From a virus: a stretch of DNA of 42,329 nucleotides. Both the position numbers and the translations under genes were made by a program. The stretch lies in UHGV virus genome UHGV-1357302; one strand, written 5' to 3'. The notes beneath the pieces were generated by a model, which was not told the DNA's origin, did not search any database, and saw only the letters and a program-made list of their open reading frames with translations. This document shows positions 37 through 40,933 of this stretch, in pieces; the first letter of the stretch is position 1, and each line of letters opens with the position of its first letter.

Positions 37-567
37 ATGGCTAATGAAGCAAAGGTAGCGGCTAAAGGTATTGATATTATTTTACTTTTCCGTTTGCTAA
101 AAAAATCAAAAGAGGAAGCAGCATGGAAATTAGCTTTCCAGACAGAACATGAAAATACAAAAACAAAAGATAGTGACTCCGTGGCCACTAAAGATGGTCC
201 GATTCGTATCCCAGGATCATTGGAAATTGATTTTTCAGCAACATCTATTTTATCAGTCGGTGATCCGTATGTTGATCAACTAGAAGAAGCTTTAGACAAT
301 GACGATATTATTGAAATTTGGGAAATCAACAAAGCAGAAAAAGGCACAGGAGATAATGCTGACAAATACAAGGCAACCTATTACCAAGGATATGTAACAT
401 CATTTGGTAAATCGCCTAATGCTGAAGACACCGTAGAAGTTTCATTAGAATTTGGTATCAATGGTAAAGGTGCAAAAGGATTTGCAACATTAACTGCTGA
501 TCAAGAAGAAGTAGTTCAATATGTCTTCAAAGATACGACTATTGAAACAGCTGATCCGGGAAAGTAG
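37..567 (+). CDS. phage major tail protein (zero-frame product)
   Basis: 176-aa ORF with GAAGGA RBS 7 nt upstream of the ATG. It sits directly after the head-tail joining genes (by wrap-around) and before the Ig-like ORF, the G/GT chaperone pair and the tape measure, which is the canonical siphovirus position. Composition is typical of phi13/TP901-1-type major tail proteins (recall, not searched). Confidence 0.7.
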   Translation: MANEAKVAAKGIDIILLFRLLKKSKEEAAWKLAFQTEHENTKTKDSDSVATKDGPIRIPGSLEIDFSATSILSVGDPYVDQLEEALDNDDIIEIWEINKAEKGTGDNADKYKATYYQGYVTSFGKSPNAEDTVEVSLEFGINGKGAKGFATLTADQEEVVQYVFKDTTIETADPGK

Positions 568-629
568 ATAGCCCTTCTGTGGGAAGTGTAACTCCTACAG
601 TCGATGGGGCTTCTATTGAATTAAGCTAA
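558..629 (+). other. putative -1 programmed frameshift site (G GGA AAG, 558-564) plus 21-codon -1-frame extension (564-629) of the major tail protein
   Basis: The slippery X XXY YYZ heptamer spans the last two sense codons (GGA AAG) just before the TAG stop at 565-567. The -1 frame then reads VDSPSVGSVTPTVDGASIELS and stops at TAA 627-629. The extension is paralogous to the one after the major capsid gene at 40868-40933. Confidence 0.45.
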
Positions 630-644
630 GAAAGGAAAATAAAT

Positions 645-1103
645 ATGGTGAATACTTTTAAAATTTATAAAGGCCAAACCGAAGTTGTTTCCGGCACATC
701 ACCTTTAACTATAACAGGAATGGAACCTAACACCTCTGTGCCAGTTGGTGAGTACCAAGTAACTCGTGTTGTTAATGGGAAAGAATCAGAGCGAGTAGAT
801 ATTCCAGCTTTTAAAACATTGTCTATTGCTGTAACTGGCTTAGAGTTTTCTCCTAAAACATCAACAGCAGATGCGGGTACTGCAGGTAGCCGACAAATCA
901 CAGCAACTGTCTTGCCTGAAAATGCAACCAACAAAAAAGTAACCTATAAGATTACGCCTGAAACAGAAGGTCTTGCTGTCTCTGAAACAGGAAATATTAC
1001 TTGGACAGAAGCGGTACCGGCTGGTGTTTATACTACAACAGGAACAACAGAGGAAGGTAAAAAAACAGCTCAACACACCTTAACATTGAATAATCAAGCT
1101 TAA
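645..1103 (+). CDS. Ig-like (Big_2-type) domain protein, probable tail or capsid decoration
   Basis: 152 aa with its own RBS (AAAGGAAAATAAATATG). The segment ITATVLPENATNKKVTYKITPE...GNITWTEAVPAG fits the bacterial Ig-like group 2 consensus. It lies in the same frame as the major-tail -1 extension, separated from it by a single TAA. Confidence 0.6.
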   Translation: MVNTFKIYKGQTEVVSGTSPLTITGMEPNTSVPVGEYQVTRVVNGKESERVDIPAFKTLSIAVTGLEFSPKTSTADAGTAGSRQITATVLPENATNKKVTYKITPETEGLAVSETGNITWTEAVPAGVYTTTGTTEEGKKTAQHTLTLNNQA

Positions 1104-1158: not shown

Positions 1159-1509
1159 ATGCAAATCGAAATTAAAGGAAAAAAATATAACTGTATTTTT
1201 GGAGTCAAGTTTATTCGTGAATTGGATAAGCAGCATGGGGTAGTTCGCAATGATGTAAATCTTGGGATGGGACTAACAACATTATTACCGCAGCTAGTAA
1301 GTGGAAATATCGTTGTTTTATCTGATGTACTCTACACAGCTACCATTACGGAAAAAAGTAGACCTTCTAAGGATGAAGTAGATGAGTTCGTTGAAACTGT
1401 GGATGATATTGAGGCATTATTTGATGAAACGTTGAAATACTTAGAAGAAAGCAATGCGGGAAAGTTAACGGTCAGAAATTTCAAGAAAGCTCTGATGGAG
1501 AACAAGTAA
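1159..1509 (+). CDS. tail assembly chaperone (gpG-like)
   Basis: 116-aa ORF between the major tail protein and the tape measure, with RBS GGAGGAAAAGGCATG. It contains the slippery heptamer G GGA AAG at 1458-1464. Confidence 0.6.
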   Translation: MQIEIKGKKYNCIFGVKFIRELDKQHGVVRNDVNLGMGLTTLLPQLVSGNIVVLSDVLYTATITEKSRPSKDEVDEFVETVDDIEALFDETLKYLEESNAGKLTVRNFKKALMENK

Positions 1510-1859
1510 GAGAGGAACTAACCTCAGCTGAAGCTTATGAAAATATTCTTATTAATTGTTTTCGTTACCTAGAAATTACTGATTTATCAGAAATTGAACG
1601 AATGACTTTGTATGAATATGAAGTTAGGCTATTGGCGTTTCAGTTAAAAAGACTTGACCATGAAAGAGACCTCTATCTTCAATCTTGGCTAAATAACCAA
1701 ATTAAGGCGACTAAAGGTAAAAAATCTGAACCTTATTATAAGGAATTCAATAAGTTTTTCAATTATGAAGAACGAGAGAAGCTTATTTTTGGTAAATCAT
1801 TAATTGATGAAAAAGTTGATATAGGAGCAATTGATTTATTAAGAAAAGCAAATAAGTAG
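1159..1859 (+). CDS. tail assembly chaperone G-T fusion via -1 frameshift at 1458-1464 (T segment open in -1 frame from 1428 to 1859)
   Basis: The frame of ORF 1602..1859 is -1 relative to ORF 1159..1509 and stays open upstream to 1428, so it overlaps the last 80 nt of G. Slipping on G GGA AAG joins ...SNAGK to VNGQKFQE...RKANK. This is the conserved G/GT arrangement upstream of tape-measure genes. Confidence 0.5.
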
Positions 1860-1871
1860 GAAAGGAGGAAA

Positions 1872-4800
1872 ATGATGGAACAATATTCAGTAGAAGCAAT
1901 ACTTATTGCCACTGATAAAACGTTTAGTAGCACGATGAGTAGCGCTGAGCGTTCAATGGTTGGTGTAAACAAACAATCTGGTGAACTAGGTGATGGACTG
2001 GATAAAAGTACCACTAAAGGTAATCAATTGGGTAAGTCAATTCTTAGTATTGGAGCAGGCGTGGGCGCTGTAAAATTAGTATCTACGGCCGTAAATATGG
2101 TTAAGGACTCTGTTGAAGGAGCGATTAACCGTTTTGATACGTTGAATAAATATCCTGTAGTTATGAAAGCTCTAGGTTACTCAACAGAAGATGTAGATAG
2201 ATCAATGACTAAGTTAAGTGATGGGATTGATGGGCTTCCTACATCGTTAGATGAAATCGTATCAAATACGCAACAGTTAGCAATTTCAACTGGTAGCTTG
2301 AGTAAAGGAACTGACACAGCTATTGCATTAAATGATGCCTTTCTTGCTTCTGGAGCTTCAACTGCTGATGCAACTCGTGGTATGCAACAATATATTCAAA
2401 TGCTCGGTAAGGGTGAAGTTGATATGCAGTCTTGGCGAACATTACAAGAAACAATGCCGATTGCGATGGATAAAGTTGCTAAGTCTTTCAAAGAACAAGG
2501 TGTAAACTCAGTTAACCAATTATATGATGCCTTAAAAGAAGGAGATATTACATTTAATGAGTTCAATAATCGTTTGATTGAATTGGATAAAGGTGTAGGC
2601 GGTTTTGCGGACCTAGCAAAGAAAAACTCAAAGGGTATCAAAACATCATGGGCAAATATTAAAACAGCCACCGTTAAAGGTGTAACTACAGTAATTAAAT
2701 CATTTGATGAACTATCCAAAGCAGTGACAGGAAAAAACATTGCCGAAAATTTAGATTCTTTAAAAAATGTAGTGAATATAACTTTTAAGGCAATCGATGC
2801 AGCGATTCAATCAACTATTCCATTGATGAAACTATTCGGAAAAGCTATTACGTCGGTAGGTACAGCCTTAACACCATTACTGCCAACAATTGCCAGTTTT
2901 GCTGCCACTTTTACAGCATTGAAAGTAATTCAGCAAGTGACAGGTTATATAAAACAATCTGAATTGGCAATCAAAGCTTATACAACCGCAATAAGTTTAT
3001 ACAATGGAATATCAAAACTGGCAACGTTGTCTACCACAGCACTCGGAAGAGCATGGATGTTAAACTTAGCAGCCGATAAAGCCAATTCTGCAGCAATAGC
3101 AATAAAAACTGGTCTTTTAGTGGCGCAAAATACAATCGTTGGTGTTTTGACAGGAACAATTAGTTTAGCTACAGTAGCTACAACTGTTTTTAGTACCGCT
3201 ATGAAATTGTTGATGGGCCCTATTGGTTGGGTAACAGCTGCAATAGGAGGACTAGTAGCTGTAGGGGTAAACTTGTGGAAATGGTTAAATAAGGAAACTG
3301 AATCAACTAAGGCAGTTAAAAAAGAACAAGAAAACCTTATGAAAACCACAGATGACTTGATTAAAAAGAATCAAGAACATGCACAATCCCGAAAAGATGA
3401 AGCTATTGAGTTAGAAAATACTAAAGAAAAATATAATTCAATGATTTCTGAAATGGCAACGCTCGCTGCCAAAGAGAAATTAAGTAACGGCGAGAAAAAA
3501 CGTATGACAGAAATTGTTGAAGAGTTGAACGGTAAAATGACAGGTTTAAACTTAGTTTACGATGAACAAAGTAATAAACTTTCTGAAATGCCAGGTAAAA
3601 TTCAACAACAAATGGACGCATATAGCGCATTAGATAAAGCTTCAAAAGCACAAGAAGATATCAATAAGATGTTGCAGCAAAGAAATGATAATGAAGCAAA
3701 ATTAATGGAAATCAATGCAGCTAGGGAAAAATGGAATCAGACATTAAAAGAATCTGGCGGGAATACAAAAGAAGCCCGTGAAAATATAGCTGAATTAGGT
3801 GAACAAGAAAAAGTTCTAATGGGCGTTCAAGAAGATTTGAGAAATGATATTATAAATACTGCAAAAACACATGAATCTGCAATGCAAACAGCTAGTCAAG
3901 CTGTAGCAAATGGAGTTTTAGAGCAGACGGTTTCTTACAATGCGTTAAGTGGTAAAACAAAAGAGACTATGGATGCTATGCGTGCTGAATACACTTCTCT
4001 TGAAACAAAAGTGGGTAGCGCCTTTGATGTTATTGAGCAAAAGCAGGCTATTTCAGTTGATCAGATGGCTGCTAACTTACAGAAGAACCAAGAAGCTGTT
4101 GCACAGTGGGGACAAAATATTTCAACTCTTGCAGAACGACATGTTGACCAGGGGTTATTGGAACAACTTAGAAAAATGGGTCCAGAGGGTGCAGCACAAG
4201 CAGCAGAGCTTGTTAATGCATCAGATGAACAATTACAACGCTTAAATGATGTTTATCGTAATACAGGCGAAACTTCCATGAACGCAATGAAAGAAGGTTA
4301 CCAGTTAGGTAAAAATGGTGTTAATGAGGAAATAGCAAGCTTAATCCCAACACAAAAAGATACATTAATGACACAGATTAAAAATACAAATTTTAACGAT
4401 ATTGGTAGAAGTGTTACTGAAGACTTTAAAGCAGGAATTGAGAATGGTAGAAATGCAGTAGCAGAAATGACCAAAGGAATTGTTCCACAAATGGGAACCG
4501 ATATGAAAGGTGAAGTTGAAAAAGCTAATTTCCCTGATATAGGTAAAGCTATCCCTCAAGGTCTAGAGAAAGGTATTGGAGCTAATAAACAATTACCTGT
4601 AAAAACATCTAATCAAATGATTGATGATGTTGTTTCTGGTGCCAGAAAAGGTTTAGATTCTCACTCTCCTTCTCGTGTATTTCACTCAATTGGTGAAGAT
4701 GTTGATTCTGGATTATCAAACGGTATCGAACAAAACGCAATGAATCCAGTAAGAGCTGTTGAGTCTATTGTTGATAAAATAATTTCTGCAATGGATAAAT

Positions 4801-5282
4801 TGCCATCAGAAATGAATTCTATCGGAGCAAATGCAATTGATGGATTGACTAATGGTATTAATGCCAATGCGAATAGTGCTTTAGCTGCAGCAAGAGGTGT
4901 GGCAGATCAAATTGTAAGTACAATGAAAAGTGCTATGGATATTCATTCTCCATCACGTGTAATGCGTGATGAAGTAGGTAAAATGATTCCAGCAGGAGTA
5001 GCGGTTGGTATTGATAAATATTCAAACTTTGTGGAAAAATCTATGCAACGACTAAGTAAAAAAGTAGCCATGCCAGCGCTGGATAATTTAAATTCAAATC
5101 TGTCATTTAGTGGAGGATCACAAAGCTTAGCATTTGCTGGAGATGTATCTTCAAAATTGACTGTAGAGGTACCTGTTATTTTCGATAGTTCAGAGGTTGC
5201 AAGGGTTATTGCTAAACCAATGAGTAAAGAATTGCAGAATCAACAAGATAAAAAGAATGTTTCTTTAGGAAGGAGGCGCTAA
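1872..5282 (+). CDS. tail tape measure protein
   Basis: 1136 aa with RBS GGAAAGGAGGAAAATG. It has long coiled-coil and Ala/Gly-rich segments, a central hydrophobic block (about residues 300-470), C-terminal duplicated HSPSRV motifs, and the standard position after the G/GT chaperones. Confidence 0.9.
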   Translation: MMEQYSVEAILIATDKTFSSTMSSAERSMVGVNKQSGELGDGLDKSTTKGNQLGKSILSIGAGVGAVKLVSTAVNMVKDSVEGAINRFDTLNKYPVVMKALGYSTEDVDRSMTKLSDGIDGLPTSLDEIVSNTQQLAISTGSLSKGTDTAIALNDAFLASGASTADATRGMQQYIQMLGKGEVDMQSWRTLQETMPIAMDKVAKSFKEQGVNSVNQLYDALKEGDITFNEFNNRLIELDKGVGGFADLAKKNSKGIKTSWANIKTATVKGVTTVIKSFDELSKAVTGKNIAENLDSLKNVVNITFKAIDAAIQSTIPLMKLFGKAITSVGTALTPLLPTIASFAATFTALKVIQQVTGYIKQSELAIKAYTTAISLYNGISKLATLSTTALGRAWMLNLAADKANSAAIAIKTGLLVAQNTIVGVLTGTISLATVATTVFSTAMKLLMGPIGWVTAAIGGLVAVGVNLWKWLNKETESTKAVKKEQENLMKTTDDLIKKNQEHAQSRKDEAIELENTKEKYNSMISEMATLAAKEKLSNGEKKRMTEIVEELNGKMTGLNLVYDEQSNKLSEMPGKIQQQMDAYSALDKASKAQEDINKMLQQRNDNEAKLMEINAAREKWNQTLKESGGNTKEARENIAELGEQEKVLMGVQEDLRNDIINTAKTHESAMQTASQAVANGVLEQTVSYNALSGKTKETMDAMRAEYTSLETKVGSAFDVIEQKQAISVDQMAANLQKNQEAVAQWGQNISTLAERHVDQGLLEQLRKMGPEGAAQAAELVNASDEQLQRLNDVYRNTGETSMNAMKEGYQLGKNGVNEEIASLIPTQKDTLMTQIKNTNFNDIGRSVTEDFKAGIENGRNAVAEMTKGIVPQMGTDMKGEVEKANFPDIGKAIPQGLEKGIGANKQLPVKTSNQMIDDVVSGARKGLDSHSPSRVFHSIGEDVDSGLSNGIEQNAMNPVRAVESIVDKIISAMDKLPSEMNSIGANAIDGLTNGINANANSALAAARGVADQIVSTMKSAMDIHSPSRVMRDEVGKMIPAGVAVGIDKYSNFVEKSMQRLSKKVAMPALDNLNSNLSFSGGSQSLAFAGDVSSKLTVEVPVIFDSSEVARVIAKPMSKELQNQQDKKNVSLGRRR

Positions 5283-14317: not shown

Positions 14318-15712
14318 CTAAAATTTATATTTAATAATTACCTCATCATCAAATAGTTCTATACGTTCAACAAACTCTTTGATGATAAGGATTTTATTTT
14401 CTGTAGTTTCAGTTTCCCAATTAAAAGTTTTTAACGTTTCAAGCTTATTAATTAATGACTCACTTTTGGTACCTTCTAAGTTTGCTATATTGGCAGTTAA
14501 CGCATTTATTTCATTATCAATTTTTTTCATACGTTCATTAAGCATTGTGACATCAAATGTACCATATTGATACAAATCTAGAATTTTTTGCTTTTCATTA
14601 TGCTTCTTGGAAATTTGGTTATTAATAGTGGTGATTTTTGATTTTGTTTTATTTTCAACTTGTTTTAATTCACGTTCGATTTTTTTGAAGTCCAATGATT
14701 TAAGTGAATCTATTACTTTCTTTTCAACTACTTCTTGTCTGAGACTAGGTTGTTTGCAGTTCCAATCTTTTACTAGCGAAGGTAGCATTTTCTTTACTGA
14801 TCTACACATATAATAATTATATCGATATTTTTTGCCTCCTGATACATAACGAAATACTTTAGCTCCGCATTTACCACAATAAGTAATCCCTAATAAAAGC
14901 CCTAATTGATTTCCATGCTGTTCGCCACCTTTTTGAGCCTTTCTGGCAATAATTTCTTGAGCTTTATCGTACATAGATTTATCAATTATAGGTGTGTGAT
15001 GGCCATCATACACTTTGCCGTCCCAACTTATTTTGCCAATATATAATGGATTGGTTAAGGCATATTTTACTATGGTTAATGTTTTTACCTTATCTGGGTA
15101 TTTTGCAACCATACGTTTTGTTATATATTGCTGTCCTTTACCTTGGTTCACATATAAATCATAGATTTCTTGAATAATTTGCGCCTCGTAATCATTGATA
15201 ATTAATTCTCCATCCACATAATCGTAACCTAAGGGAACAATGCCACTTCCGTGATAGTATCCTTGTTTTGCACGTTCTGTTCTTCCCATGTGCATTCTTT
15301 CTGTAATTGTGTCTCGCTCTAATTGTGCAAAAACGGATAGCATTCCTATCGTCGCACGGCCAAAAGGTGTTGATGTGTCAAAGCTTTCTTGCATGCTGAT
15401 AAAGTCTACATTATTTTTTAGAAATACATCTTCAATTAAATACAATGTATTCTTTTGTGAACGTGAAAGCCTGTCTAATTTGTAGACTAGAACCACATCA
15501 ATTTTTTTATTTTGAATATCAGATATCATTTCTTGTAATGCAGGGCGCTCCATTTTTGCTCCTGAAAACCCTGGATCAGTATATACTTTTGCAACTGCCA
15601 TATCTTTTGCTTTTGCAAAAGCTTTTAGTTTATCTGTTTGTGCGGGAATGCTGTATCCTTCCTTGGCTTGTTCCATTGTGGATACACGTATATACAATGC
15701 TGCACGTTTCAT
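14318..15712 (-). CDS. int: large serine recombinase (phage integrase)
   Basis: 464 aa. The N-terminal resolvase catalytic domain is MKRAALYIRVSTMEQAKEGYSIPAQ with the catalytic Ser in YIRVS. A recombinase domain and a Cys-containing zinc-ribbon region (CGKCG...C..C) follow, then a C-terminal coiled coil. It sits at the edge of the lysogeny module. Confidence 0.9.
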   Translation of the reverse strand: MKRAALYIRVSTMEQAKEGYSIPAQTDKLKAFAKAKDMAVAKVYTDPGFSGAKMERPALQEMISDIQNKKIDVVLVYKLDRLSRSQKNTLYLIEDVFLKNNVDFISMQESFDTSTPFGRATIGMLSVFAQLERDTITERMHMGRTERAKQGYYHGSGIVPLGYDYVDGELIINDYEAQIIQEIYDLYVNQGKGQQYITKRMVAKYPDKVKTLTIVKYALTNPLYIGKISWDGKVYDGHHTPIIDKSMYDKAQEIIARKAQKGGEQHGNQLGLLLGITYCGKCGAKVFRYVSGGKKYRYNYYMCRSVKKMLPSLVKDWNCKQPSLRQEVVEKKVIDSLKSLDFKKIERELKQVENKTKSKITTINNQISKKHNEKQKILDLYQYGTFDVTMLNERMKKIDNEINALTANIANLEGTKSESLINKLETLKTFNWETETTENKILIIKEFVERIELFDDEVIIKYKF

Positions 15713-38839: not shown

Positions 38840-39481
38840 ATGAAAACAAAAAAACTATTATTGCCAATGCATTTACAATTCTTTGCTGATAATCCAGATA
38901 CTGGCGCTGGGGATACGGACCAACCGGCCGGAGGTCAAGAGCAAACACCGCCAGAAGATGATAGTAAAGATAAAGGCAATGGAAAAACGTTTTCTCGTGA
39001 TGAAGTAGCAAAAATGATTGCTGCTGAAGTATCAAAAACAAAAGAAGCTTGGGAAAAAGAGCTTCAAGAGAAACAAGAAGAAGCCGATAAATTAGCCAAA
39101 ATGAATGATCAGGAGAAAAATGATCATGAAAAGCAGAAGTTACTTGAAAAAATCAAAGAGCTGGAAAGTGCGCAAAACTTAGCTGAAATGTCTAAGACTG
39201 CTACTACAATGTTTTCTGATAAAGGTATTCAAGCGACTGAGGGATTACTTACGTTAGTAGTAAAGGAAACAGCAGAGGAGACATCTGAAAATGTTAAAGC
39301 TGTTGTAAAACTTATCGAAACTGAACGTGAAGCGATTAAAGCAGATTTTGAGAAACGAATTGGTTCTAAACTCCCACTTGATGGAAATGCTGATGCTAGC
39401 TTATCTCGTGGTGCACAAATGGCTAAACAAGCAAATAATCAAAATAAAGCGCCTGAAAATAATCCTTGGGCGACAAATTAG
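38840..39481 (+). CDS. head scaffolding protein
   Basis: RBS GGAGGATAATCATG. The N-terminus MKTKKLLLPMHLQFFAD carries the LQFFA motif characteristic of scaffold and prohead proteins. Highly charged coiled coil. Immediately upstream of the capsid gene. Confidence 0.65.
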   Translation: MKTKKLLLPMHLQFFADNPDTGAGDTDQPAGGQEQTPPEDDSKDKGNGKTFSRDEVAKMIAAEVSKTKEAWEKELQEKQEEADKLAKMNDQEKNDHEKQKLLEKIKELESAQNLAEMSKTATTMFSDKGIQATEGLLTLVVKETAEETSENVKAVVKLIETEREAIKADFEKRIGSKLPLDGNADASLSRGAQMAKQANNQNKAPENNPWATN

Positions 39482-39493
39482 GAGGAATTTTGA

Positions 39494-39835
39494 ATGGTTT
39501 ATGTAAAGAAAACTCAAACATATCAAGATATTAATTTTTTAAAGAGCGAAAAATTCATTTCATTTACAAAACAAGTTGATGAAACAACTGAAGGGGTAGA
39601 AAAAGGAGTGCTACCTGCAGGGTCAGTGTTCCCTAAAAATGATGCTACAGCAGAAGGTATTACAATTAATGATGTTGATGTATCAAATGGACCACAACCA
39701 GTGGGCGTAATTGTTGAAGGGCATGTTCTTATTAAACGATTACCAGTTGAGCCATCATCGGAAGCTCAAAAAGCAATGCGTGAAGTTAAATTTTATGATG
39801 CAAACGGTAAAATGCTAGCAGTTCCAACTGCTTAA
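39494..39835 (+). CDS. hypothetical head protein (113 aa) between the scaffold and the major capsid protein
   Basis: RBS GGAGGAATTTTGAATG. Decoration or auxiliary capsid protein by position only. Confidence 0.4.
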   Translation: MVYVKKTQTYQDINFLKSEKFISFTKQVDETTEGVEKGVLPAGSVFPKNDATAEGITINDVDVSNGPQPVGVIVEGHVLIKRLPVEPSSEAQKAMREVKFYDANGKMLAVPTA

Positions 39836-39857: not shown

Positions 39858-40871
39858 ATGGCAAATATTGCAGAATTATTTTCACAGAAAAATGTATTAG
39901 ATTATGTAAATAATCGTCAAGCACCAGTTTTATTAGGAGAAACATTGTTTCCAGCACGTAAGGTACAGGGGTTAGAGTTTGATGTTTTAAAAGCGGGATC
40001 TAAAATCCCAACAATTGCAAGCGTTCATGCGTTCGATACAGAAGCTGAGATTGCTTCACGTGTTGGATCGAAAACAGCTCAAGAGTTAGCGTTCATCAAA
40101 CGTAAAATTCAATTAAAAGAAAAAGATTTAATGGCCTTACGCAAGCCTCGTGATGCAGCAGAACAACGTTTCTTAGAACAAGAAGTGTACAACGATGTAG
40201 ATGCAATGGTTGGATCTGTAAATGCGCGTGTTGAAAAGATGCGAATGGAAGTATTAGCAAATGGAACAGTTACATTAGACGAAAATGGTTTAGATTTAGT
40301 AGTTGATTACGGCGTACCAAAAGAACATCAAGCTACAGCTGACTTTACTGCACCTGAAACAGATGTTATTGGGCTATTGACTGAATGGGCAAGCGCTTTG
40401 GATACTACGCCTACTCGTATCTTAACATCTACAAAAGTACGCAACGCGATTCTTCAAAACACTGGGATTAAAGCATATTTTAAAGATGCAGGATTATTGC
40501 CAACAATCGGCTCTTTAAATCAAATGTTCCAACAGTTTGGATTGCCAACGCTTGTAACTTATGATGCGAAATACAACAAAGAAAATGAAAAGGGCGTATT
40601 AGTAAAAGAACGTTATTTCCCAGAAAACAAGCTAGTCATGTTTGGTGATGAAAACCCAGGAGAGTCTATTTTCGGTGTAACACCAGAAGAATCTCGTTTG
40701 TTATCAACTGGATCAAATAACTACACAGTAGGCAATATTTTCGCAATGGTATACGAATCTAATTTAGACCCAGTTGGAACATGGACTAAAGCATCAGGAA
40801 CAGCTCTACCAAGTTTCCCAGAAGCTGACAATGTATTCCAAGCTACTGTCTTACCTGATTCAAAAAAATAG
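39858..40871 (+). CDS. major capsid protein (zero-frame product)
   Basis: 337 aa with RBS AGGAGGATTTCAAATG, following the scaffold. Ends in ...LPDSKK with the A7 run before TAG. Confidence 0.8.
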   Translation: MANIAELFSQKNVLDYVNNRQAPVLLGETLFPARKVQGLEFDVLKAGSKIPTIASVHAFDTEAEIASRVGSKTAQELAFIKRKIQLKEKDLMALRKPRDAAEQRFLEQEVYNDVDAMVGSVNARVEKMRMEVLANGTVTLDENGLDLVVDYGVPKEHQATADFTAPETDVIGLLTEWASALDTTPTRILTSTKVRNAILQNTGIKAYFKDAGLLPTIGSLNQMFQQFGLPTLVTYDAKYNKENEKGVLVKERYFPENKLVMFGDENPGESIFGVTPEESRLLSTGSNNYTVGNIFAMVYESNLDPVGTWTKASGTALPSFPEADNVFQATVLPDSKK

Positions 40872-40933
40872 AAGCCCCGAAAGTTGAAAGTGTAACACCA
40901 ACAACTGACGGGGCCTCAATCGTATTAAGTTAG
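40862..40933 (+). other. putative -1 programmed frameshift site (A AAA AAA, 40862-40868) plus 21-codon -1-frame extension (40868-40933) of the major capsid protein
   Basis: The -1 frame reads IEAPKVESVTPTTDGASIVLS then stops at TAG 40931-33. It is paralogous to the tail-protein extension (SVTPT(V/T)DGASI(E/V)LS), and most nucleotide differences are synonymous in this frame. Confidence 0.45.

Follow-up and report, generated by a model that had tools for sequence, protein, structure and literature searches.

The 42,329-nucleotide (nt) virus genome UHGV-1357302 (the window, by which the whole stretch of DNA that was analysed is meant) contains an open reading frame (ORF) at positions 645-1103, directly after the major tail protein gene, that encodes a free-standing protein with an immunoglobulin (Ig)-like domain. 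Sequence and gene-order comparison identified the window as a phiEf11-like Enterococcus faecalis siphophage: bases 1-1,900 share 95-98% DNA identity with the temperate E. faecalis siphophages EFC-1, IME197 and phiEf11 (95% for phiEf11), and the gene order agrees with that of all three. The major tail and major capsid protein genes each end at a putative -1 recoding site that is followed by a short conserved extension (the tag). The analysis presented here indicates that the tag and the product of ORF 645-1103 hold complementary parts of one fibronectin type III (FN3) domain, with strands A and B in the tag and strands C to G in the N-terminal part of the free protein (the acceptor), to which a Big_2 Ig-like domain (the cargo) is attached, an arrangement that would probably allow capsid and tail subunits to be decorated by one free protein.

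The tail gene ends in its 0 frame with GAT CCG GGA AAG TAG (TAG at 565-567), and the capsid gene with TCA AAA AAA TAG (TAG at 40869-40871). The heptamers located at these ends (Table 1) both satisfy the X_XXY_YYZ register of a canonical -1 programmed frameshift, and downstream RNA structure is predicted at both sites, the stem-loop at 563-617 being a candidate frameshift stimulator. The tail heptamer, G_GGA_AAG, is also that of the lambda G-T frameshift site. From these sequence features we infer that -1 frameshifting occurs in this phage. The two tags that a shift would add are homologous, with 68% DNA identity and 12 of their 21 differences at third codon positions. A tag profile that was run on all six frames of the window found exactly two sites (E 3e-10 and 2e-9, next best 0.36; the window's tags are included in the profile), in agreement with the original prediction that both major structural proteins carry a short conserved tag. 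For phiEf11 ORF10, the identical capsid shift site and 21-residue extension were proposed in 2016 to explain two virion capsid bands of 38-39 and 41-43 kDa, ~3 kDa apart (Stevens et al. 2016, PMC5221750). In the same study (PMC5221750), the phiEf11 ORF15 protein ran at 28-30 kDa versus 21.5 kDa predicted, and the alternative frames of ORF15 were reported to contain no overlapping ORF from which read-through could make a larger product.

ORF 645-1103 is a genuine gene that encodes a protein of 152 amino acids (16 kDa). Its ATG is located 15 nt past the tag stop, in the tag frame (a match expected by chance in 1 of 3 cases) and with no further stop in between, so that everything first read from the sequence at this junction, from the -1 extension and its stop to the start of the ORF in the same frame with its own ribosome-binding site, holds at the coordinates predicted, and the gene is, as proposed, a free-standing Ig-like one. 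An acceptor profile gave a single match on the window, which was this ORF (the window sequence is included in the profile). Homologues number at least 96 at cluster level, and every one examined starts at the same M-x-x-(F/L)-K-(I/V)-Y position. The AlphaFold2 model of the protein, which was built from a 63-sequence alignment, has a predicted local distance difference test score (pLDDT) of 95 and shows an N-terminal sandwich that is only partial. Sequence matches and the predicted structure agree that the C-terminal domain is a Big_2 fold: this half scored 19.2 bits with Pfam PF02368, below the 22.8 cut-off, but it matched the Big_2 domain of 7quz with phmmer (E=1e-6) and with Foldseek (probability 1.0; root mean square deviation 1.8 Å over 88 columns), phi29 capsid protein chains were also matched by Foldseek, and many homologues of the ORF have precomputed PF02368 matches. 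The whole protein matches phrog_341 over its full length (176 bits), a family named 'major tail protein', and GenBank annotations of this ORF likewise say major tail protein; neither the fold nor the family of a tail tube was found for it. As the ORF consists of a partial FN3 domain and a Big_2 domain, and the true tube protein is encoded at 37-567, this name is a misannotation.

The identity of the partial N-terminal domain became apparent in relatives. In Carnobacterium phage cd4 and in locus L053, the tags end with SVTLSWE and SITLTWD immediately before the stop, which is the FN3 strand B signature with its conserved tryptophan, and the ORFs open with TFTVYQNG and TYNVYRND, which look like FN3 strand C. 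Against Pfam fn3 (PF00041, cut-off 25 bits), the N-terminus of the L053 ORF alone scored 34.5 bits over profile positions 32-83 of 84, and 49.6 bits over positions 2-83 with the tag joined to it; cd4 scored 20.2 bits (positions 52-83) without the tag and 36.3 bits (positions 2-83) with it. When all PDB sequences were searched with a profile built from 30 tags and nothing else, 9 of the 10 matches were FN3 domains, each matched at strands A-B (e.g. FN3con residues 2-24). A second profile, made from 22 concatenated tag and N-terminus sequences (the window's included), matched FN3con and human 10Fn3 at E ~3e-4, with alignments that cross the junction: the tag falls on strands A-B and FKIYK on strand C, and the B-C loop between them is a gap. 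In the AlphaFold2 model, the strands of the N-terminal domain were assigned by reading to FN3 C, C′, F and G, and SPLTITG, at the expected place of the E strand, has no strand assignment, as is expected if its partner strand B is absent. The model of a relative's acceptor gave weak Foldseek matches (template modelling score ~0.4) that were nearly all FN3 domains and included anastellin (1q38), an FN3 fragment without strands A and B. By these sequence relationships, the tag appears to be the missing A-B hairpin of the free protein's N-terminal FN3 domain, with the cut in the B-C loop. The original prediction had placed the separation between the structural protein and a whole Ig domain; the Ig-like protein is indeed free, but the boundary falls inside FN3. 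None of the 209 matches from a concatenated-profile search of 5.8 billion proteins spans both tag and acceptor (maximum coverage 73%), and a search with a readthrough-like sequence found no unsplit relative. The best PDB match of the concatenated profile was 5e7t chain B, residues 221-282 (E=4.8e-6), a contiguous FN3-like domain at the C-terminus of a lactococcal baseplate accessory protein (Tuc2009 'Minor structural protein 5', from a baseplate tripod entry), and this domain may be an unsplit relative.

Table 1 Features of the window UHGV-1357302; RNA structures and protein folds are predicted, and empty cells mark items for which no entry is given
Feature	Position	Strand	Details
-1 slippery heptamer G_GGA_AAG, tail gene	558-564	+	Read from sequence; in register, immediately 5′ of 0-frame TAG 565-567
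RNA stem-loop just 3′ of tail slippery site	563-617	+	Minimum free energy -24.8 kcal/mol, z = -2.2 versus shuffles
Tail-protein tag	564-629	+	21 codons in -1 frame, VDSPSVGSVTPTVDGASIELS, then TAA 627-629; proposed FN3 strands A-B (donor); tag profile 36 bits
Shine-Dalgarno sequence for the Ig-like ORF	628-636	+	AAGAAAGGA; strong match, 8 nt 5′ of ATG 645; overlaps tag stop TAA
Acceptor, N-terminal 58 residues	645-818	+	FN3 strands C-G without A-B; AlphaFold2 pLDDT >90
Cargo, Big_2 Ig-like domain and stop codon	819-1103	+	C-terminal ~90 residues
-1 slippery heptamer A_AAA_AAA, capsid gene	40862-40868	+	Read from sequence; in register, immediately 5′ of TAG 40869-40871
Capsid tag	40868-40933	+	21 codons in -1 frame, IEAPKVESVTPTTDGASIVLS, then TAG 40931-40933; homologous to tail tag; tag profile 33.6 bits
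RNA stem-loop 3′ of capsid slippery site	40871-40917	+	Minimum free energy -24.2 kcal/mol, z = -3.1
Major tail (tube) protein gene	37-567	+	176 amino acids in 0 frame; Pfam Phage_tail_2 65.3 bits; phrog_238 220 bits
Major capsid protein gene	39858-40871	+	337 amino acids in 0 frame; Pfam Phage_cap_E 130.8 bits; phrog_29
Tail assembly chaperone	1159-1509		Phage_TAC_12
Second ORF of tail assembly chaperone pair	1602-1856		No Pfam match
Tape measure protein	1872-5282		
Scaffold	38840-39481		Far end of window, with head genes

The same layout was found in all relatives examined, which comprised Brochothrix phage BtpYZU02, Staphylococcus phages 187 and IMEP5, Carnobacterium phage cd4 and 80 IMG/VR loci: a capsid or tail gene with a recoding site at its last codons, a tag of ~21 residues and its stop, and then the Ig-like ORF after a gap of 1-37 nt that contains a ribosome-binding site. 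Whether the ORF adjoins the tail gene or the capsid gene depends on the lineage, and the route by which the tag is reached also varies. The -1 heptamers among the relatives are GGGAAAG (in Brochothrix-type relatives at the same place as in the window tail gene), GGGGGAG, AAAAAAA, CCCAAAAG and GGGAAAC/A, and the alternatives are a +1 shift at CCC_TAA/TAG or an in-frame fusion. In-frame tail tags occur in phage 187 and in phiEf11, L013 and L022, where the fusion arises from a 1-nt insertion at the slippery site (GAT CCA GAA AAA GTA in phiEf11, L001 6037-6630; GAT CAC GGG AAA GTA in L013). As the phiEf11 tag is in frame, every tail subunit of that phage would carry it, and these natural in-frame variants indicate that a phage with a tagged tail protein is viable. 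The capsid proteins of the window (39858-40933) and of EFC-1 (L002 3610-4601) have no similarity (BLASTP E=12), and both bear a tag of the same class, reached through different slippery sites (AAAAAAA versus GGGGGAG); the presence of same-class tags on unrelated capsid genes of near-identical phages indicates that swapping of the head module preserves the tag.

Tag and acceptor co-occur strictly in both directions. Application of the tag profile to all fetched loci showed that every acceptor locus of sufficient length has a tag at the capsid stop and a second at the tail-gene stop, and that ~25 loci matching the Big_2 part only have no tag by this profile. To examine the converse, IMG/VR was searched with a degenerate DNA pattern that encodes VTPTTDGA, and 68 true tags and 21 chance matches were obtained. 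An acceptor ORF was present within 4 kb of 61 of the 68 true tags, the remaining 7 being in truncated loci, and in all 14 loci that cover 3 kb on both sides of a true tag, whereas 20 of the 21 chance matches had no acceptor. This association holds across phages of Enterococcus, Staphylococcus, Brochothrix and Carnobacterium. Among 50 distinct tag DNAs, codons that differ by a single nucleotide do so synonymously in 63% of cases in the tag frame, versus 21% and 9.5% in the other frames, and the tag frame is under protein-level selection. Tag class follows acceptor class, with Spearman coefficients of 0.85 for the adjacent and 0.79 for the distal tag that are not corrected for shared ancestry. 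Tag identity is 0.60 between the two tags of one genome and 0.24 between genomes of different acceptor class; HPSTPQNVVVDAYSKSASITAE is an example of a tag of a class other than the window's.

The acceptor is found with more than one kind of cargo. A profile search of 1.84 billion representatives returned 344 clusters at E<=1e-3, and in 107 of the best 150 representatives the acceptor is located at the protein N-terminus, in proteins of 56-373 amino acids. It is followed by one or two Big_2 domains, He_PIG, a G5 domain, Thr-rich mucin-like stretches or a SAP-like motif, or by no cargo. Fusions of the acceptor to G5, to long Thr-rich mucin-like stretches or to the SAP-like motif (the last in P0141) were seen in P0131, P0134, P0137, P0141, P0152 and P0181, and the SAP-like motif of P0141 is similar to the extension that lengthens the capsid protein of Listeria phage PSA in its long form. 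Three proteins of 89 amino acids (P0184, P0180 and P0186) consist of an acceptor and a C-terminal tag of their own, and could be extenders or chain formers. The gene for P0184 lies directly 3′ of the capsid gene in a Staphylococcus gallinarum prophage (L091 5006-8357), in which the tail gene has a clear +1 tag (15.2 bits) and the capsid gene a tag-like +1-frame extension that scores <5 bits on the tag profile. K-like myoviruses have a run of three neighbouring genes (Staphylococcus phage Stab22, L007 2856-4255) that encode a tag-ended protein (g149), an acceptor-Big_2-tag protein (g150) and an acceptor alone of 73 amino acids (g151). Such acceptors with varied cargo and proteins with both acceptor and tag fit the docking of a donor into an acceptor, and are hard to explain without an interaction between the two. 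The 174-residue chain deposited as PDB 9rox/9roz ('Putative Ig-like protein') matches g149 at residues 2-175 and is without the tag. A link of g149 to the 'stopper decoration protein' gp164 of phage 812 was ruled out, as gp164 has 152 amino acids and g149 has 210. The paper on the phage 812 neck describes unresolved 'neck whisker' density, to which a link from g149-g151 could not be established (PMC12886913).

Taken together, the sequence anatomy, the FN3 homology of both halves, the selection on the tag at protein level and the two-way co-occurrence suggest, with reasonable but not high confidence, that tagged capsid and tail subunits bind the free Big_2 protein in trans by strand complementation. 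The original prediction had offered this explanation in outline, as decoration of capsid and tail by a soluble protein with affinity for the tag; the analysis adds that the tag corresponds to the missing FN3 A-B hairpin, the binding itself being suggested by sequence. Some ribosomes would slip -1 at G_GGA_AAG and at A_AAA_AAA, each with its predicted stem-loop, and instead of stopping would add a 21-residue C-terminal tag made of a short linker and FN3 strands A and B. ORF 645-1103 would be translated independently from its strong ribosome-binding site, giving an FN3 domain reduced to strands C-G and then Big_2. Insertion of the tag in trans into this incomplete domain would tether Big_2 to the tagged subunits, so that the free protein would reside in the virion, the number of decorated subunits would be set by frameshift efficiency, and head and tail would be served by one gene. 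In folds of this kind the C-termini of capsid and tail tube proteins point outward, and this accounts for the success of T7 display and of Ig domains added by frameshifting. By analogy with what is proposed for other phage Ig-like domains, Big_2 probably makes weak contacts with cell-surface carbohydrate.

Other observations limit the case for binding in trans. Mass spectrometry of phiEf11 found no tag peptide; proteins <27 kDa, and hence also the 16 kDa protein, lay outside that analysis (PMC5221750). The window's own tag joined to its N-terminus reaches no Pfam fn3 score, so that the FN3 assignment for this phage comes from relatives and from the profiles of the family. The acceptor is folded by AlphaFold2 with high confidence even though the tag is missing, and it may be stable alone. 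In the AlphaFold2 model of P0184, a chain with both acceptor and tag, the tag is disordered (pLDDT ~50); its 7-residue linker is estimated to be too short to span the FN3 domain, and the disorder therefore speaks neither for nor against binding in trans.

A different relationship between the two genes was also suggested by the original prediction, in which low-level readthrough of TAA 627 would give a tail protein-tag-Ig fusion. A second recoding event could likewise give such a covalent fusion, and in either case the shared frame would be functional. Tag and ORF do share a frame in the window and in all phiEf11-like relatives, with one stop and a 15-18 nt gap between them, but the offset takes the values 0, 1 or 2 among 44 distinct tag-ORF pairs and varies even between close Brochothrix-type loci (1 in L079, 0 in L080), and in many phages the ORF follows the capsid gene instead. 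Relatives with the ORF in other frames or positions had been named in advance as evidence against a meaningful arrangement; their existence removes any significance from the shared frame, which has no conserved meaning in the window, and shows that readthrough is not a mechanism on which this family depends, but it does not refute the proposed binding of tag by free protein. The ORF has kept its own start codon in every lineage, at the same position in its database homologues, its strong Shine-Dalgarno sequence overlaps the very stop that would be read through, and no ORF follows the capsid tag, so a fusion could not account for a tag on the capsid; we regard readthrough as extremely unlikely. 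It is unlikely, to a lesser degree, that the tags are leftovers of an ancestral frameshift-added FN3-Big_2 extension that was broken by a stop and that the free protein works without them, whether it attaches to the virion in some other manner or does not attach. Contiguous frameshift-added Ig-like domains exist in related phages, as in the ~88-amino-acid Big_2 extension of the Brochothrix NF5 capsid, and the acceptor is predicted to fold alone. A relic would be expected to decay, yet in phages of distant hosts the tags persist on two different genes of each genome with a bias to synonymous substitutions, are reached through different recoding signals, sit on unrelated capsid proteins and, in the IMG/VR scan, were never found without an acceptor gene nearby.

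That the free protein recognises the tag only transiently, as an assembly factor that is not in the finished virion, fits the place of its gene amid assembly genes, just upstream of the tail assembly chaperone genes, and the virion analysis of phiEf11 stopped at 27 kDa, above the size of this protein (PMC5221750). This explanation appears unlikely to us, as the cargo domains (Big_2, He_PIG, G5 and Thr-rich mucin-like stretches) are typical of surface display or adhesion and not of chaperones, and phiEf11, with a tag on every tail subunit, is viable. The tag could also serve a function that has nothing to do with the ORF, such as contacts between subunits or translational control of the next gene, and co-occur with it through linkage only. 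In its favour, the RNA of the tag region folds into the frameshift stem-loop as well, and the distance from tag stop to ORF start is 1-37 nt, so that part of the conservation could be at the RNA level or reflect translational coupling. The distal tag, which belongs to the other structural gene ~2 kb away from the ORF, is nevertheless equally conserved and equally matched to acceptor class, and linkage hardly explains why the tag is homologous to FN3 strands A-B and the acceptor truncated in exactly the complementary way; such a separate function is therefore highly improbable.

Frameshift-added Ig-like or FN3 domains are known from SPP1 gp17.1*, Lactobacillus phage A2 gp5B/gp10B and T3 10B, and their occurrence on phage structural proteins was reportedly described by Fraser et al. 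in 2006. The addition of such domains to capsid and tail proteins has been reviewed (PMC5009743, PMC8718954). The arrangement proposed here resembles these systems in its location at the last codons of a capsid or tail gene, in its use of a -1 heptamer or a +1 shift at CCC-stop, and in the display of an Ig-like domain by a fraction of the subunits, but there the whole domain is contiguous, whereas here the shifted frame ends after 21 residues (TAA 627, TAG 40931), inside FN3. With the recoding sites kept, the domain broken in the B-C loop and the remainder moved to a gene of its own, one gene can serve two structural proteins. The capsid of Brochothrix phage NF5 (L093 5690-5966) is of the contiguous kind, with an annotated -1 frameshift at A_AAA_AAG and neither tag nor acceptor found, and NF5 was for this reason dropped as a test of tag-acceptor binding. 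A 2026 cryo-electron microscopy (cryo-EM) paper describes the NF5 capsid as being without a decoration protein and does not mention frameshifting (PMC12917162); the Big_2 domain was probably averaged out of the map. Listeria phage PSA, the classic example of a phage with frameshifts in its capsid and tail genes, was rejected as an instance of the same system because its extensions miss the tag profile and no acceptor ORF was found. The 2016 study of phiEf11 described the same capsid site and extension but made no link to the tail C-terminus (in-frame in that phage), to FN3 or to ORF16 (PMC5221750).

Pilins of the Fim and Pap chaperone-usher systems are completed by donor-strand complementation, the missing strand being the C-terminal G. 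Completion of an incomplete Ig-like fold by strands of another polypeptide is what is proposed here as well, and single chains with both acceptor and donor (P0184, K-like g150) resemble pilins, which polymerise by donor strands; unlike in pili, strands A-B are missing, frameshifting produces the donor at a C-terminus, there is no sign of a chaperone or usher, and there is no sequence relationship. Anastellin shows the same truncation of the same fold but is a laboratory or proteolytic fragment of the first FN3 of human fibronectin, not a natural two-gene system. SpyTag/SpyCatcher and split-GFP are engineered split-domain tags, in which, as would be the case here, cargo is attached when a short tag and an incomplete beta-sandwich partner together rebuild a domain; SpyTag becomes linked within a CnaB2 domain by an isopeptide bond, which is covalent, and nothing here suggests a covalent linkage. 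The likeness to pilus complementation and to engineered tags would be one of way of working, not of membership. T4 Hoc and T5 pb10 are separately encoded proteins with Ig-like domains for display on the virion (PMC10385173, PMC5292684), as is proposed for the present protein; they differ in binding the capsid lattice at defined sites via a dedicated domain, with no peptide tag and no decoration of the tail.

Among the surrounding genes (Table 1), the two tail assembly chaperone ORFs are separated by 93 nt, and the usual G/GT-type frameshift, if any, was not located there. A hairpin at 1115-1140, 12 nt 3′ of the stop of the Ig-like ORF (-15.5 kcal/mol, z -3.1), is followed by a short U-rich stretch and could be a terminator or attenuator between this ORF and the tail chaperone genes; it is seen by RNA folding, though a simple terminator scan did not call it. 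An ORF of 113 amino acids between the scaffold and capsid genes (39494-39835) matches phrog_909 ('major head protein'), has no Pfam match and is absent from EFC-1-type head modules. A large serine recombinase on the minus strand (14318-15712), with Resolvase, Recombinase and Zn_ribbon_recom domains, is likely the integrase, which fits a temperate phage or prophage.

For the wider family, it seems an evenly balanced proposition that many Firmicutes phages possess a natural, modular 'tag and catcher', in which an FN3 domain is split into a frameshift-added A-B tag on capsid and tail proteins and a C-G acceptor with interchangeable cargo, chains are possible (g149-g150-g151), and the density of decoration is set by frameshift efficiency or by in-frame fusion. 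No description of a split FN3 or of tag-mediated decoration was found in the full-text literature searched, several key older papers being outside the search. If the two halves bind, they would represent an apparently undescribed mode of attachment of viral decoration proteins, in which a free protein is recruited by a peptide that recoding adds and that completes the protein's fold. Such a mode would explain why short, seemingly pointless frameshift extensions are kept on two unrelated structural proteins, why phrog_341 is annotated as a second 'major tail protein', and why phiEf11 has a second capsid band, and it may explain why such decorations, being flexible and sub-stoichiometric, are absent from symmetrised cryo-EM maps. 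It would also provide Gram-positive phages with a ready, non-covalent display system, in which edits to a single small gene could change the cargo, and edits to the slippery site could tune its density.

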